A DNA stretch of 64,000 nt, taken from Minisyncoccota bacterium. GTDB taxonomy: Bacteria; Patescibacteriota; Minisyncoccia; 2-02-FULL-40-12; GWA2-44-9. This document shows positions 52,268 to 57,519 of the stretch, in pieces. Location of the stretch: contig CP129474.1 in NCBI GenBank assembly GCA_030583765.1, positions 265,709 to 329,708 on the forward strand, written 5' to 3'. Under the pieces are notes generated by a model. It did not search any database and had not been told where the DNA came from. It saw only the letters and a program-made list of their open reading frames with translations. The first letter of the stretch is position 1; each line of letters begins with the position of its first letter. The translations under genes and the position numbers were made by a program.

Positions 52268-53194
52268 CTACGGTGTGACGAGAGAGCGCGGGAGAGAACA
52301 CGCGAGCGTTACGCGTATCGGGAGCACGTGCGACACAGCACCCCCTTGCGACGCGGCGCCCATGAAGCGCGCATAGTCCGGCGTTATGCCGGGCCATGCG
52401 GTGCCAGGTTCGGCAAACTGCATGAGCCAGAGCGCGCGACGCTCTGCCGGAATGAGCGAAGGATAGTCCCAGCTTACTCCGGTGCGAGACATGAGCCCCT
52501 CTGCCCGATGCAGATGACCCAGACCAAGCGCATGGACCAGTTCGTGAGCCAGCGTGTGGCTTTCGAAGTACGCGGAGCGCAATTCGATGTAGGCCTCCGT
52601 GATCACCGAGCCTTCGGTGATAGCCCACGCCCACCCAGCAACGTTCTCTGGGATGCGATCATTCACGTACACGTATACGCGAGTCGCATTCGTGGGCATG
52701 GCCTGCTCCGGCCTCCGCTCCACCAGCCTAATCCACGGCACTGCCGGCTGAAGATCTGCGATCGCCTTACTCACCGCATCGGGATCGCGCACGCCGCGCA
52801 GTGGGCTCATGACAGTGATCACGAACTTCTCCGCGACAGGACGCGTGAGGAGCTTCTCACCCTCATCACCCGCCGTGCGGTACCACAGCTCGTAGAGCGT
52901 GGTGAGCTCGTTGTCATCCCCACTCGGGGTGAGTTTGATGACCTCCTCGCCTTCCCACGGCGCGATGCCGAAGTGAGGAAGAAAGCCATCCGCTTGAGCG
53001 ACGAAGAACGAGCCTGGTCGCACAATCGTACGTGAGCCCGCGGCAACGACAATGCCGCTCGGGTCTCCAACCGTTGCGGCGACGCTTCCACCTCCTCCCA
53101 AAGCAGTCGCGTCACGAAACTTCAGAACCGCTTCCTGCGCGAGCGCCGAAGCGGTTGAGAGCACGAACACGGCCGCGATCAAGAAGGGCTTCAT
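52268..53194 (-). CDS. secreted metzincin-type zinc metalloprotease
   Basis: Signal peptide MKPFLIAAVFVLSTASALA, and HELVHALGLGH (HExxHxxGxxH). Confidence 0.65.
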   Translation of the reverse strand: MKPFLIAAVFVLSTASALAQEAVLKFRDATALGGGGSVAATVGDPSGIVVAAGSRTIVRPGSFFVAQADGFLPHFGIAPWEGEEVIKLTPSGDDNELTTLYELWYRTAGDEGEKLLTRPVAEKFVITVMSPLRGVRDPDAVSKAIADLQPAVPWIRLVERRPEQAMPTNATRVYVYVNDRIPENVAGWAWAITEGSVITEAYIELRSAYFESHTLAHELVHALGLGHLHRAEGLMSRTGVSWDYPSLIPAERRALWLMQFAEPGTAWPGITPDYARFMGAASQGGAVSHVLPIRVTLACSLPRSLVTP

Positions 53195-53360
53195 CCCCTG
53201 CCTCCATACTACATATTATGCATTAAAAACAAAGAATTGCAAGAGGCTTATATCTCTCTCGCAAGTCCCGCCGATTTCAATCCCACGCTCTGCGACATCT
53301 GTCCCCAGTAGGGGCCAGTTCTCCCGCCCGCGGTATGCACTACATGCATAGCGCGGGCTT

Positions 53361-54581
53361 TTATTTTTTAATAAATACCCTTCCCTCTCCACTTAAAAAC
53401 TTTTGGTAGGTGCGCATGAGCGTCTCGGTATCCATCCGCTCTGCAATAGCCAAAAGCTCAGAAAACGCAGGTGGCTCATCAAAGAATTTCATGAGTTTCT
53501 GCATCTTTGTGAGAGCGCCATCATGCTCCGCGATAGCACGGCTCGTAAGTCCCTTAAACTGTGATGCGAGCCACGCCACATCTTCATGTGGTATTTGTAC
53601 AGCGAGTTCTTTGATAACGTTTTGTACAACACTGGCGGCCTCTTCTGGATGTTGCGATGGGCCATCTATAAAGAAACAGAAGGCGTTTCCAAATATCTCA
53701 TGGTATGCATTAATTTCATATACAAGCCCACGCTTCGTTCTGAGCTCGTCACGCAACAAAGAAGAATATCCAACGTTAAGGCGGTGGCGTAAAAATTCAA
53801 GCGCAACAAATTCTTCACGCAAGGGCTTTTCTAAAGATGGATACGCCACCATCCAAAACGACATTTGTCCATTCACGGAAATAGATGAGCCACGGTCTGA
53901 GACTGTGACAGGTGGCAACTTTGGAAGAGTGAAGGCTCCTGATATTGGCCATACTTTAAATGCCTCTTCGACTTGTGTCCGCGCTTCATTGGCCGAAATA
54001 CCACCAACAATGAGTAGGGTTGCGTTTTGTGGGACGATCATGTGCCGCCAATATGCAATAAGGTCTTCACGAGATGCCCTTCCTATAGCCTCTAAGCTGC
54101 CGAGAGAATTTAGTGCGGAAGGGTGTCGAGAAAATAATGCTGCTACAGCTGCATCATAAAACATCCTGTGGGTGTTTGCTTGAGATCTCGCGAATTCCTC
54201 GCCAATAACTTTTTTCTCATTTTCAAGCACCGCTGGATCTATCAGTGAATCAGTGACGTCGTCTCGCACAATATTTAGTACAAGAGGAAGGTCATCTCGA
54301 GCTCCCTGCATAACAAAGGTAAGATGAGTAGCTCCTGTATTTGCACTAACAAACGCTCCAATGCGGTCTATCTCCTTTCCAATTGCCATACTTGAAGGAC
54401 GCGCTTTCGTGCCTTTCAAAAGCATGTGCTCAAGTAGGTGCGCGTATCCCTGCTGATCCTCCTGCTCATAGGCGCACCCTGCACGAAACACGAGATTCAT
54501 TGTTACCACTGGCGCATCGGGCTGTTCTAATACGGCAAGTCGCATGCCGTTAGGGAGGGTTGTCCAAGAAAAATCATTCAT
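53361..54581 (-). CDS. M16 (pitrilysin/insulinase) family zinc peptidase
   Basis: Inverted zinc motif HLLEH (GYAHLLEHMLLKGT), plus the M16 N- and C-domains. Confidence 0.8.
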   Translation of the reverse strand: MNDFSWTTLPNGMRLAVLEQPDAPVVTMNLVFRAGCAYEQEDQQGYAHLLEHMLLKGTKARPSSMAIGKEIDRIGAFVSANTGATHLTFVMQGARDDLPLVLNIVRDDVTDSLIDPAVLENEKKVIGEEFARSQANTHRMFYDAAVAALFSRHPSALNSLGSLEAIGRASREDLIAYWRHMIVPQNATLLIVGGISANEARTQVEEAFKVWPISGAFTLPKLPPVTVSDRGSSISVNGQMSFWMVAYPSLEKPLREEFVALEFLRHRLNVGYSSLLRDELRTKRGLVYEINAYHEIFGNAFCFFIDGPSQHPEEAASVVQNVIKELAVQIPHEDVAWLASQFKGLTSRAIAEHDGALTKMQKLMKFFDEPPAFSELLAIAERMDTETLMRTYQKFLSGEGRVFIKK

Positions 54582-54604
54582 TGCTAGATTGCGAACGTTT
54601 GATA

Positions 54605-55078
54605 TTATTGTATGCCTTCTAACCCCATTTTGATACGACGCTTTTCCAGGTTCTTCGGATCCTTCACGGGAAGCATCTTAAGCGTCCCGTCTGATAGGCG
54701 CTGGCGCTGTGTTCCGTAGAGTTGTAGCTCTCCCCGATTGATAAGGACGCGATCCGTAAGGTGCGCTTTTTCGTTTGGTTCAAAGTCACAATACTTAAGG
54801 CACTGCTCTTGGAGTTTGGTATCGTGCATGACGTGCTGCACGAGCAGAAAGAGTGCTTTCATCGCCTCTGCGCCAACCATCTTCTGCGTTGGGTATCCGT
54901 ATTCTTTGATAATCTGACGCACATTCTGGTAGTGAAGTGTGTCTATGGCGTAGATAAGATAGTTCACCAGCTCCTTCCCAGGCTTTGATTGAAGACGCAA
55001 CTCCTGTTCAACCGCCGCCATTTCTAATATGTAGCGCGAGAGCGATTGTTTTTGTTGTACGGTAAGTTTTTTGGGCAT
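54605..55078 (-). CDS. hypothetical protein (157 aa), low GC, inside candidate RiPP cluster
   Basis: No recognisable motif. Located between the ATP-grasp and M16 peptidase genes on the same strand. Confidence 0.4.
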   Translation of the reverse strand: MPKKLTVQQKQSLSRYILEMAAVEQELRLQSKPGKELVNYLIYAIDTLHYQNVRQIIKEYGYPTQKMVGAEAMKALFLLVQHVMHDTKLQEQCLKYCDFEPNEKAHLTDRVLINRGELQLYGTQRQRLSDGTLKMLPVKDPKNLEKRRIKMGLEGIQ

Positions 55079-55131
55079 GTATTGATTATATAAAGAAGTG
55101 GGGTACTAGGCTTTGCCGTTCCCCCATTGTC

Positions 55132-56118
55132 CTACACGAGCAAGTCCGCAATCGCTTCAGCGATTCGGGCCTGCGTCCTTAGCTGCACGAAGTACCATTG
55201 GCCATTCGGATTGATTTCGAGAAAAATGTAGTCGCCACTTGGCGAAACAATCATATCGATACATCCGAACCTTAGGCCAAGCTTTGCCACCAGCTTGAAG
55301 AGACGAGCCTCAACATCACTAGGCAGCGTGACTGAGCTCATCTTTAAATCCGTGTCGTTTAGTCTCGGCTTGCGGCGCCAGTCCACTGCCGTTTCAGGAT
55401 CTACTTGGGAGTCGATTTTTGCAGCGAAGATCTTGTCACCAACAACCGTGATACGAAGTTCGTATGCCTTTTCGACATACCCCTGGAAGATTGCGGGGGC
55501 CTGCTTGATACGATCAATCCCCGCCAGAGCTTCCTCAGAAAGTCTGTTCGTGTACATCACGTTGTTCATGATCATGGCAGGAGCTAGGAGCTTCATTATC
55601 ACACCCCCGCTCTGCTGATAGAAAAACGCGCGCACACGATCGGGGTCCGATGTCACAAGCGTTGGTGGGATCGAAAAACCAAGATCTGTCGCTACCTTTA
55701 GCTGCAGCAGTTTGTTCTCAGCTATGGCTTCTGCCCAGGGATCGTTAACCCACTTCTTGTCTCGAAAAAGCGTCCGGAGCGCATGACGCATCTCCTGGAA
55801 CTGCCTGTTCACCATCTGCCGATACTCACCGGGCTCTAGTAAGAGCAGCTCCTTTGGTAAGTGCGGCTTGAGGTACCAGATTCCCGTGAAGTCGTCGATG
55901 CAGTAGGGCGTCGAGTCGATGACGACATCATACCGAACTCCGGTAGCATTGGCTTGATAGACGAGAAAGTCAGACTCCAGGCACTTGTCCTGCCGAAACA
56001 GAACAACTTTGTTTACACCACGACTCTGAAGAGCTGTCACAACGGATTGGAACGCTTCTACTTCATGGATTCCAGAATTGCCAATTGCAAGTATCATCTC
56101 ACCCTCCTCCTCGCCCAC
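55132..56118 (-). CDS. ATP-grasp ribosomal-peptide maturase, MdnC/MvdD (microviridin/graspetide) family
   Basis: C-terminal half reads …AYELRITVVGDKIFAAKIDSQVDPETAVDWRRKP…RFGCIDMIVSPSGDYIFLEINPNGQWYFVQL…IAEAIADLLV. This is near-colinear with MdnC from memory (ALELRITIVGEQIFTAAINSQ…DWRKEG…YGAIDMIVTPDERYIFLEINPVGEFFWLE…ISQAIAEILVN). Probable start at MILAIGNSG (56097). Confidence 0.8.
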   Translation of the reverse strand: MGEEEGEMILAIGNSGIHEVEAFQSVVTALQSRGVNKVVLFRQDKCLESDFLVYQANATGVRYDVVIDSTPYCIDDFTGIWYLKPHLPKELLLLEPGEYRQMVNRQFQEMRHALRTLFRDKKWVNDPWAEAIAENKLLQLKVATDLGFSIPPTLVTSDPDRVRAFFYQQSGGVIMKLLAPAMIMNNVMYTNRLSEEALAGIDRIKQAPAIFQGYVEKAYELRITVVGDKIFAAKIDSQVDPETAVDWRRKPRLNDTDLKMSSVTLPSDVEARLFKLVAKLGLRFGCIDMIVSPSGDYIFLEINPNGQWYFVQLRTQARIAEAIADLLV

Positions 56119-56151
56119 TACCGTACATTTAAATTATTGATTAGTCAAGCA

Positions 56152-56198
56152 TCTTTTTAAAAAGAGGGGCGCTGAATCCCGTTAAGGAATCAGCGCCC
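56152..56198 (-). terminator. intrinsic terminator/attenuator between precursor gene and ATP-grasp gene
   Basis: 12/13-bp stem GGGCGCTGAATCC/GGAATCAGCGCCC with loop CGTTAA, followed on the minus strand by CUCUUUUUAAAAAG. Confidence 0.45.
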
Positions 56199-56214
56199 AA
56201 AGGCGTGAGGCTTG

Positions 56215-56439
56215 CTACGTCGCGTCGAGAGCGTCGGTGTCGTTCCAGTACCCGGTCGAGGTGCCAGCGAAGACACCTTCACGGTACTCGAAGTAGTCCA
56301 TGATGAACGGCTTGGGGCTGTTGGACGGAAGCTGCTGGGGCCGAGTGGCGGCGAGAACGCTCGCCGGGATCCTCGGTTGCGTCGAAACGGCCTGTGCGAT
56401 TTCCATGAGCCTTACTCCTAACAAATACGGTACTGACAC
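56215..56439 (-). CDS. candidate graspetide precursor peptide
   Basis: 74-aa ORF (shorter if started at MEIAQ) immediately upstream of and co-directional with the ATP-grasp gene. The leader-like segment KPFIMDYFEY is followed by a Thr/Ser/Asp-rich C-terminal core TSTGYWNDTDALDAT. Confidence 0.5.
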   Translation of the reverse strand: MSVPYLLGVRLMEIAQAVSTQPRIPASVLAATRPQQLPSNSPKPFIMDYFEYREGVFAGTSTGYWNDTDALDAT

Positions 56440-56470
56440 TAGAATACTTCTTTCTAATAATTCGTCAAGA
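56430..56470 (-). promoter_or_regulatory. candidate promoter of precursor gene (TTGACG-N16/17-TATTCT)
   Basis: rc of 56463-56468 is ttgacg. There is a weak -10. Confidence 0.25.
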
Positions 56471-56493
56471 ACCTCGGAAGGTCGCGGAGCACA

Positions 56494-56535
56494 TGAAAGA
56501 AAAAGAAAAGCGCCGAAGGGGTGAACCTTCGGCGC
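56494..56535 (-). terminator. rho-independent terminator after lipoprotein metzincin gene
   Basis: 10-bp stem GCGCCGAAGG/CCTTCGGCGC with loop GGTGAA, followed by a U-rich tract on the minus strand. Confidence 0.5.
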
Positions 56536-56607
56536 GGTGGCAAGAACGGGACGGTATCACATCGCCCCGCGATCGCCGGAAAGAACAGAGAGTGGGAACG
56601 GGTGAGG

Positions 56608-57519
56608 CTAGTGGAGCGGGCAGTCGATCTCCACGGTGCTGTGCGCCGTCGAGAGAGCGGTGGTGACGTCACGATCGTTGTCGGGGGCCGAAGTCCCCGG
56701 CCGACGACGGAACATCATGCGCATGACGTAGGCTTCGGTGTTCGTAAACACCGGCTGGAACAAGGCTCCGTTCGAGTGCATCGTATCTCGAGCATCGATT
56801 GAATGCCCCATACCCAGGCCATGACCTGCCTCATGGCAAATCGCAAGCCTCGCCTTCTCAACGCTCGAGAATCGCATACGCGACGAGGAGATGAGATTCC
56901 CTGCGAACGTGTTTCCGGTTATCCCGAAAGCTTGCAGCGATGGGTCGATGAGGAGCGTGAACTGCACGCCGGATCCACCAACCGAAACGCTCGCCCTCTG
57001 GGTCGCAGTCGTCATCTCGCCAGCGCAGGCATTGATCACGTTCATCGCCTGCGCATCGGCGGAGATTTCCGCGGACGGCGCGAGTCCGATGGAGCCCGCC
57101 GCAGGACGGGACAGGCGGTTGCCCGGCGCCCACTGATGATACACCAGTGCGTCGATGTACTCTCCAGACACCACGGTGGTATTCCAGAGGTACACGTTCC
57201 ATGGCGACTCCCCACGATACGCCGTGTTGAAGTCGCGGTGACCGGAAGCAGAGACGTCCACCGCATCACCCGAACGGAGCGACACGGAGACCTCGCCGCT
57301 GGCGTTCGTCGTCACGCGACCTGAAGGGGTCGCGATGGACGCGCCGGCCAACGGCATGTCGTCCCAGCCCGAGAACACTCGGACCGAAACGGTCTGCGCG
57401 CCCGGGGTGGGCGTTGCCGTCGGCCCCGGGGTGGGGCCAGACGGGCTCCCCCCTCCGCCGCACGCGGCGAGGGAGAGGAGGACGAAAGCCACCAGAAGGC
57501 GGCTCATCATCTTCGTCAT
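56608..57519 (-). CDS. lipoprotein metzincin-type zinc metalloprotease
   Basis: Lipobox LLSLAACGGGG, Pro/Thr linker, and HEAGHGLGMGH (HExxHxxGxxH). Confidence 0.65.
   Translation of the reverse strand: MTKMMSRLLVAFVLLSLAACGGGGSPSGPTPGPTATPTPGAQTVSVRVFSGWDDMPLAGASIATPSGRVTTNASGEVSVSLRSGDAVDVSASGHRDFNTAYRGESPWNVYLWNTTVVSGEYIDALVYHQWAPGNRLSRPAAGSIGLAPSAEISADAQAMNVINACAGEMTTATQRASVSVGGSGVQFTLLIDPSLQAFGITGNTFAGNLISSSRMRFSSVEKARLAICHEAGHGLGMGHSIDARDTMHSNGALFQPVFTNTEAYVMRMMFRRRPGTSAPDNDRDVTTALSTAHSTVEIDCPLH

Follow-up and report, generated by a model that had tools for sequence, protein, structure and literature searches.

The window is a stretch of 64,000 nucleotides from a metagenome-assembled Candidatus Paceibacterota genome. 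A short peptide gene, an ATP-grasp gene and a DUF6624 gene follow one another on its minus strand, flanked by peptidase-like genes. The features of this region are as follows, from upstream to downstream.

56608..57519, minus strand: secreted protein of the HExxHxxGxxH metzincin type with a lipobox (LSLAAC), in the upstream flank of the cluster.
56441..56468, minus strand: promoter-like site, TTGACG, 16 nt, TATTCT; sigma-70-like in a consensus scan and kept in the related loci L001 and L162.
56415..56419, minus strand: Shine-Dalgarno sequence AGGAG, 8 nt ahead of the ATG of the peptide gene.
56215..56406, minus strand: putative precursor peptide gene, 63 aa plus stop, MEIAQAVSTQPRIPASVLAATRPQQLPSNSPKPFIMDYFEYREGVFAGTSTGYWNDTDALDAT; homologues lie beside homologous ATP-grasp genes.
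56159..56198, minus strand: intrinsic-terminator-like hairpin, GGGCGCTGATTCC-TTAA-GGGATTCAGCGCCC and then CTCTTTTT, between the precursor and ATP-grasp genes.
55132..56097, minus strand: predicted ATP-grasp macrocyclase gene, 321 aa (NCBIfam and PDB matches; 833 homologues).
54605..55078, minus strand: DUF6624 protein gene, 157 aa (Pfam PF20329, 8e-16), the third conserved component.
53361..54581, minus strand: M16 (insulinase-type) peptidase gene (Pfam M16 and M16_C), with an intact HLLEH as its HxxEH motif at residue 48.
52268..53194, minus strand: a further secreted protein of the HExxHxxGxxH metzincin type, in the downstream flank of the cluster.

An earlier note on this DNA had proposed a peptide reading frame at 56215..56439, and such a frame is indeed present on the minus strand, running for 74 aa from a GTG and with its C-terminus …KPFIMDYFEYREGVFAGTSTGYWNDTDALDAT as described. 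A likelier start than the GTG lies 11 codons further in, at the ATG of 56406..56404, which has the AGGAG ahead of it, is picked by gene callers in three related contigs and gives a product of 63 aa instead of 74. The preceding gene terminates in its own terminator (56535..56510), and behind GAGGAGGAGGG the ATP-grasp gene begins at 56097, 117 nt downstream of the precursor frame and on the same strand. Plus-strand frames of 69 and 74 aa overlap the precursor, and in DNA of 62% GC a frame of this length is unremarkable alone; it stands above chance because it is conserved across genomes.

No NCBIfam, Pfam or PADLOC model matches the precursor, a word-indexed protein search with the peptide found one near-identical homologue, and an exhaustive phmmer search gave four matches with P0127 and P0128 as the true relatives; the other two, P0129 and P0130, were set aside as repeat proteins unrelated to the family. 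Since the small frames are mostly uncalled in databases, the family was recovered from the DNA flanking the enzyme, using loci chosen by enzyme alignment, 80 of them out of species-representative genomes and 80 out of metagenomes. Conservation of the frame beside homologous ATP-grasp genes had been proposed beforehand as a test, and a homologous same-strand small frame was found at 23 of 24 non-redundant loci with an ATP-grasp at least 44% identical, usually 14-110 nt upstream of the enzyme gene. The exceptions in placement are L089, with its precursor 600 nt upstream, and L084, with its precursor downstream of the enzyme, and at L091 there is no homologous small frame within range of the enzyme gene. 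Six distant loci, with enzymes 37-40% identical, carry a variant whose motif and core, described below, stand 6-7 residues further apart. The hosts are mostly Patescibacteria (Yanofskybacteria, Uhrbacteria, Tagabacteria, Saccharibacteria and Paceibacterota), together with one Chitinophagaceae genome and several bins labelled Gammaproteobacteria. Nearly all members have a start supported by a Shine-Dalgarno sequence, and their lengths run from 32 to 63 aa, that of the window being the longest.

The peptide divides into three parts, given here by residue number of the 63-aa product.

Residues 1-32 (56311..56406, minus strand): lineage-specific N-terminal leader extension under relaxed constraint, unrelated and 0-32 aa long elsewhere.
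Residues 33-44 (56275..56310, minus strand): PFIMDYFEYREG, a leader recognition-type motif, family consensus PFILxFLExxxG.
Residues 49-63 (56218..56262, minus strand): TSTGYWNDTDALDAT, the core, with putative acceptor hydroxyls T49, S50 and T51 and putative donor carboxylates D56, D58 and D61.

Counted over 24 ungapped main-type sequences, the individual positions are occupied as listed below.

Position 33: P in 23.
Position 34: F in 22.
Position 35: I or V in all 24.
Position 36: L or M in all 24.
Position 38: F or Y in 19.
Position 39: L in 18.
Position 40: E in 17.
Position 44: G in all 24.
Position 45: A in 19.
Position 49: T in 22, with A in L011 and K in L085.
Position 50: T or S in all 24.
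Position 51: S or T in 23.
Position 52: G in all 24.
Position 53: T in 18.
Position 54: W or Y in 20.
Position 56: D in 21, the other three having N, each with D at 55.
Position 58: D in all 24.
Position 61: D in all 24.

The family pattern is thus P-F-I-L-x-F-L-E-x-x-x-G … T-[TS]-[ST]-G-x-x-x-D-x-D-x-x-D, in which G44, T/S50, G52, D58 and D61 are invariant, and every member keeps three acidic residues and, at positions 49-53, no fewer than two hydroxyls. The stretch PFIMDYFEY, put forward earlier as leader-like, turns out to be the local form of the conserved PFILxFLE, and P33-F-I-M-D-Y fits the published graspetide leader signature Phhx(1,2)h, which has itself been likened to PFFARFL (PMC8939145). 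The assignment of Thr/Ser and Asp residues to the core likewise holds up, T49, S50, T51, D56, D58 and D61 all falling on conserved positions; T57 and T63 are the exceptions, being unconserved across the family (T57 is Ala in the two closest relatives). Residues before position 32 are unrelated among members and wholly absent in some, which begin MPFIL…, and P0127 (61 aa) and the L002 peptide retain the core GTSTGYWNDPD(A/S)LD behind quite different N-termini. The earlier expectation had been of a conserved leader and a hypervariable core, and the reverse was found, the core being the most conserved part and the N-terminal extension the hypervariable one.

The same division is seen in the substitutions. 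The window and L001 are too close for a selection test (4 differences in the frame), and so L162, with an ATP-grasp 88% identical, was used. In codons 32-63 there are 4.0 synonymous and 1.0 non-synonymous differences (pS 0.197, pN 0.013), and in codons 1-31 there are 3.5 and 7.5 (pS 0.144, pN 0.109). These values suggest purifying selection on the C-terminal half, from very few substitutions whose direction agrees with the family pattern. Between the same two loci (window 55132..56406, L162:4806-6081) the precursor gene as a whole has a pS of 0.17 and the adjacent ATP-grasp gene 0.59, and the intergenic DNA flanking the precursor is ~90% identical; this low divergence of the precursor suggests either a mosaic history or an extra constraint on the precursor RNA.

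Some members depart from the pattern in ways that bear on their chemistry. Position 49 is Lys in L085:692-898 (VKTSGTYGDIDSADTN) and Ala in L011:3735-3953 (GATTGTWSDIDASD), so the first core Thr is not obligatory, and the Lys could permit a lactam in that one member. A Cys stands at position 59 (A59 in the window) in 7 of the 24 members, and some members, L003 among them (MVCATTSGTWDDIDCSD), have extra Cys around positions 45-47, which may point to a disulfide, or to some other use of Cys, in a subset of the members. At L012:3822-3935 a precursor-like frame, …RLYFFLEEYEGAESVTTCGTWDDIDAADGQ, lacks an ATG, GTG or TTG start as well as the motif proline, and may be a pseudogene, use an unusual start codon or reflect an assembly error.

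Between precursor and enzyme the stem-loop itself spans 56167..56198 (32 nt, 13 pairs, 4-nt loop) and begins 16 nt after the precursor stop codon, the intergenic fold having an energy of -41.8 kcal/mol with z = -2.7 against dinucleotide shuffles. An attenuator-like hairpin upstream of the maturase had been noted previously, and it is real and a trait of the family: by a criterion of z < -2 against mononucleotide shuffles, a stable stem-loop lies between the precursor stop and the ribosome-binding site of the enzyme at 23 of 25 family loci, with a median z of -4.7. The hairpin sequences are mutually unrelated, and a T-run follows about a third of them. An Rfam scan of 55900..56800 found no known RNA family. 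A TTGACT at 56148..56143 with a weak -10 element may be an extra internal promoter. The hairpin would give more precursor than enzyme transcript, either by partial termination or by stabilisation of the 3' end, and such an arrangement of precursor-over-enzyme message is known from other RiPP and bacteriocin operons.

The ATP-grasp protein is identical to the NCBI protein with locus tag QY311_01665. Its NCBIfam matches are MvdC (2e-63), SAV_5884 (6e-60) and MvdD (4e-57), with RimK-type models at 3e-10, and it falls below the curated cut-off of every NCBIfam maturase model. Its PDB matches are the microviridin ligases 5ig8 and 5ig9 (E = 5e-42 against a microviridin ligase structure), AMdnB 7m4s, CdnC 7mgv and 7drm. 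Together these matches place the enzyme in the RiPP macrocyclase clade of MdnB, MdnC and PsnB.

Searches by tblastn with the window proteins place DUF6624 directly downstream of the ATP-grasp at 28 of 34 related loci. Across 40 sequences H82, D109, R110 and G122 are invariant and Q25, R28, D46, Q90, Q119 and T123 nearly so, and the proteins at family loci are mostly without a signal peptide. An AF2 model (pLDDT 86) has a helical bundle and a small beta-hairpin, and a comparison of it with the PDB gave no informative fold match. Of the related loci, L001, L162 and L016 alone have the M16 peptidase, and within the family the HExxH proteins are confined to the close relatives L001 and L162. As DUF6624 is retained and the M16 and HExxH genes are restricted, the conserved unit under selection is the precursor, the hairpin, the ATP-grasp and DUF6624. 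The M16 gene, the two HExxH genes, a C39_2-like gene and a 156-aa gene were each considered as conserved members and rejected, being absent from other family loci; the flanking HExxH proteins could be leader peptidases, targets of the peptide or unrelated to it. No exporter was recognised among the adjacent scanned genes or the genes called in the syntenic contig L001, and PADLOC returned nothing meaningful for the cluster.

The downstream edge of the cluster has a history of its own. The window M16 is 54% identical to those at L001:11826-13049 and L162:6632-7855, which are mutually 90% identical, and the adjacent ATP-grasp proteins are 99% (L001) and 88% (L162) identical and the DUF6624 proteins 92% and 91%. 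Synteny at the nucleotide level is lost between about 54207 and 53251, and the divergence of the M16 looks like an allele replacement at the cluster edge. Where the window has only about 170 nt (53195..53360), the close relative L001 has four extra genes separating M16 from the downstream HExxH gene (L001:13133-15825); three encode products of 182, 89 and 231 aa and the fourth a D-Ala-D-Ala-ligase-like ATP-grasp of 326 aa. Within 53361..56118 the GC content is 51% for the ATP-grasp gene, 48% for DUF6624 and 46% for M16, the precursor gene and both metzincin-type genes have 62-64%, and the whole window has 53.5%, so the cluster region is a compositional mosaic.

Graspetides are ribosomal peptides cross-linked by an ATP-grasp enzyme. 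That 56215..56406 encodes a graspetide precursor, predicted to be cross-linked by the adjacent ATP-grasp, is the reading we favour, at a probability of roughly 85%, and the proposal of a precursor-type peptide for that enzyme is well supported by the co-occurrence of homologues and by their conservation. By analogy with the microviridin, plesiocin and chryseoviridin enzymes, the ATP-grasp would bind the conserved leader motif PFIMDYFEYREG and activate the core carboxylates of D56, D58 and D61 as acyl phosphates, which the hydroxyls of T49, S50 or T51 would then attack to give omega-ester (macrolactone) rings. Lactams are not expected in most members, since the core has no conserved Lys. The invariance of T/S50, G52, D58 and D61 and the near invariance of T49 and D56 point to at least two rings across a turn at G52, and from the residues present we infer two or three; quite which is not readable from sequence, nor are the ring partners, given that T49 is A or K and D56 is N in some members. 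A nested, hairpin-like arrangement of the rings around G52 is a guess. DUF6624 would act as an obligate companion, possibly a partner protein or a tailoring enzyme, and in this lineage alone the downstream M16 peptidase seems the most plausible agent of leader removal. Our search of the literature found no published experimental work on any member of the family.

The explanation that competes most closely keeps the peptide as substrate and has the ATP-grasp perform some other ligation, such as attaching amino acids to the C-terminus or onto Asp side chains in the manner of RimK, or has DUF6624 as the main modifying enzyme. It would account for an enzyme that lies under every curated maturase cut-off and for a DUF6624 that is linked as tightly as the ATP-grasp and keeps invariant His, Asp and Arg residues, a family that has been termed a possible undiscovered class of biosynthetic enzyme; moreover position 50 is the sole strictly invariant hydroxyl. 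We nevertheless consider it improbable, because every top match in the PDB and NCBIfam is an omega-ester or omega-amide macrocyclase (1e-33 to 1e-63), RimK-type models are about 50 orders of magnitude worse, and each member has the two or more hydroxyls at 49-53 and the three acidic residues noted above.

Still further from the evidence is a regulatory leader peptide, whose translation together with the hairpin would attenuate the ATP-grasp operon, the peptide being no substrate. A terminator-like hairpin directly after the frame and ahead of the ATP-grasp gene speaks for such a mechanism, but leader peptides of that sort are constrained in codon content and not in a C-terminal Thr/Gly/Asp pattern, and what is kept across phyla here is the amino-acid sequence, the hairpins being unrelated in sequence. 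The stem starts 16 nt past the stop codon, an alternative anti-terminator pairing was not seen, and the motif matches the published leader and core signatures of graspetides, so that attenuation by the peptide appears very unlikely. Harder yet to credit is that the frame is open by chance, within GC-rich intergenic DNA or a 5' UTR. The opposite strand does carry overlapping frames of similar length, Pfam and NCBIfam are without a matching model and the word-indexed search found a single homologue, but some 30 homologues are placed alike with respect to the enzyme, in otherwise unrelated genomic DNA, with Shine-Dalgarno sites and with purifying selection on the C-terminal half, and the loci differ in contig, taxon and sequence and are not assembly duplicates.

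A wider proposal is that a Patescibacteria-wide family of hundreds of loci, including 32-aa precursors in which the recognition motif abuts the core, has an undescribed ring connectivity across T-T/S-x-G…D-x-D-x-x-D and a DUF6624-dependent biosynthesis; this is tentative, and we lean somewhat against it. If it were true, DUF6624 would be a new kind of partner or tailoring enzyme, and the window locus with its M16 and metzincin genes would offer a tractable peptide natural product from an episymbiotic bacterium of reduced genome. To our knowledge almost nothing is known of the peptide natural products of CPR bacteria or Patescibacteria, whose genomes are tiny and which live attached to other microbes; graspetides are mostly protease inhibitors. 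The N-terminal leader extension is evolutionarily dispensable, and the invariant residues together with the conserved unit lead to a minimal three-gene construct for heterologous expression.

Compared with known systems, the locus shares the general features of the graspetide class, namely a clustered ATP-grasp, a leader motif and a core with Thr/Ser and Asp. The microviridins (group 1; MdnA, MdnB and MdnC) have a homologous ATP-grasp and a Pro-hydrophobic leader motif of the helix type, and the same Thr/Ser-Asp ester chemistry would be expected. In contrast, the window core TSTGYWNDTDALDAT has no TxKxPSDx(E/D)(D/E) and no Lys, and hence no Lys-Glu lactam; the microviridins have two ATP-grasp ligases and a GNAT acetyltransferase where the window has a single ATP-grasp and no GNAT; and the leader motif of the window family stands 4 residues from the core region in precursors as short as 32 aa. 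Adjacent Thr, a turn and clustered acids reportedly give nested rings in plesiocin and thuringinin (work by Lee in 2017 and 2020 and by Roh in 2019). The window peptide resembles these graspetides of groups 2 and 3 in having adjacent Thr, then a turn, then clustered acidic residues, and differs from them in that its Asp are arranged as DxDxxD and not EE, its core is single-copy and not repeated, and its partner is DUF6624.

Closer counterparts exist among predicted loci. Graspetide loci in CPR bacteria were described by Makarova et al. 2022 (Biol Direct 17:7, PMC8939145), including a cluster 23 protein with conserved His and Arg and, as cluster1865, three near-identical predicted precursors from Candidatus Giovannonibacteria, MEKVDLKQTKEQEPTRQLPFILGFLEYREGAMAPTTCGIITDIDAYDAA, …LPFILGFLEYREGAMAPTTCGIITDIDAYDAA. 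Window residues 33-62 are identical to the cluster1865 peptide at 16 of 30 positions (53%, pairwise E = 5e-11), and the two share the PFIL..(F/L)EYREG motif, the T.xG...DxDxxD spacing and a CPR host, and group together in one family alignment. The exact peptide is present at L089, beside an ATP-grasp 53% identical over 317 aa with DUF6624 downstream, so cluster 23 is probably DUF6624. They differ in the N-terminal extension (18 residues against 32 in the window), in having TTC and II where the window has TST, YW and M36, and in the 600 nt between the L089 precursor and its enzyme, with an opposite-strand frame in between. This frame (L089:3445-3891, minus strand) encodes 148 aa, the N-terminal part of which, …HEHDQTRRR…, is reminiscent of the DUF6624 motif DQxxR. 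As cluster1865 consists of three almost identical sequences, its conserved positions are not definable from them.

The survey of Carter, Ramesh, Saad, Mubarik and Mitchell 2026 (ACS Chem Biol 21:698, PMC13097080) finds DUF6624 frequent in groups 18, 20, 23 and 42, and its new RODEO group 42 comprises 22 BGCs from candidate phyla, represented by MKKNSTPKPLILDRLRQPIEDIYKGGEKAMEGFTTHGTPNDPDSGGTD, with DUF6624 in 82% as the sole co-occurring family (PMC13097080). Group 42 resembles the window locus in its precursor, graspetide synthetase and DUF6624 with no transporter, in its candidate-phyla hosts, in a P-L-I-L-D leader motif and in a T-T-x-G-T-x-x-D-x-D core. Its representative matches only the distant subtype (L014 and L017-L019), with enzymes 37-38% identical to that of the window, and this subtype differs in the 6-7 extra residues between motif and core and in a displaced third Asp; the main-subtype strings PFILGF and TTSGT are absent from the supplement of that paper (PMC13097080). 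The suggestion in the earlier note of a new core motif therefore stands against the named, characterised graspetides and does not stand against the catalogued predictions, its homologues being cluster1865 and its related subtype group 42. On this comparison the window locus appears to be a genuine addition to a graspetide family predicted in silico and chemically uncharacterised. Published predictions that were thin, with 3 and 22 sequences, now become firmer through the invariant residues G44, T/S50, G52, D58 and D61, and the value of the locus lies in these defined residues and the three-gene unit rather than in a new kind of system.
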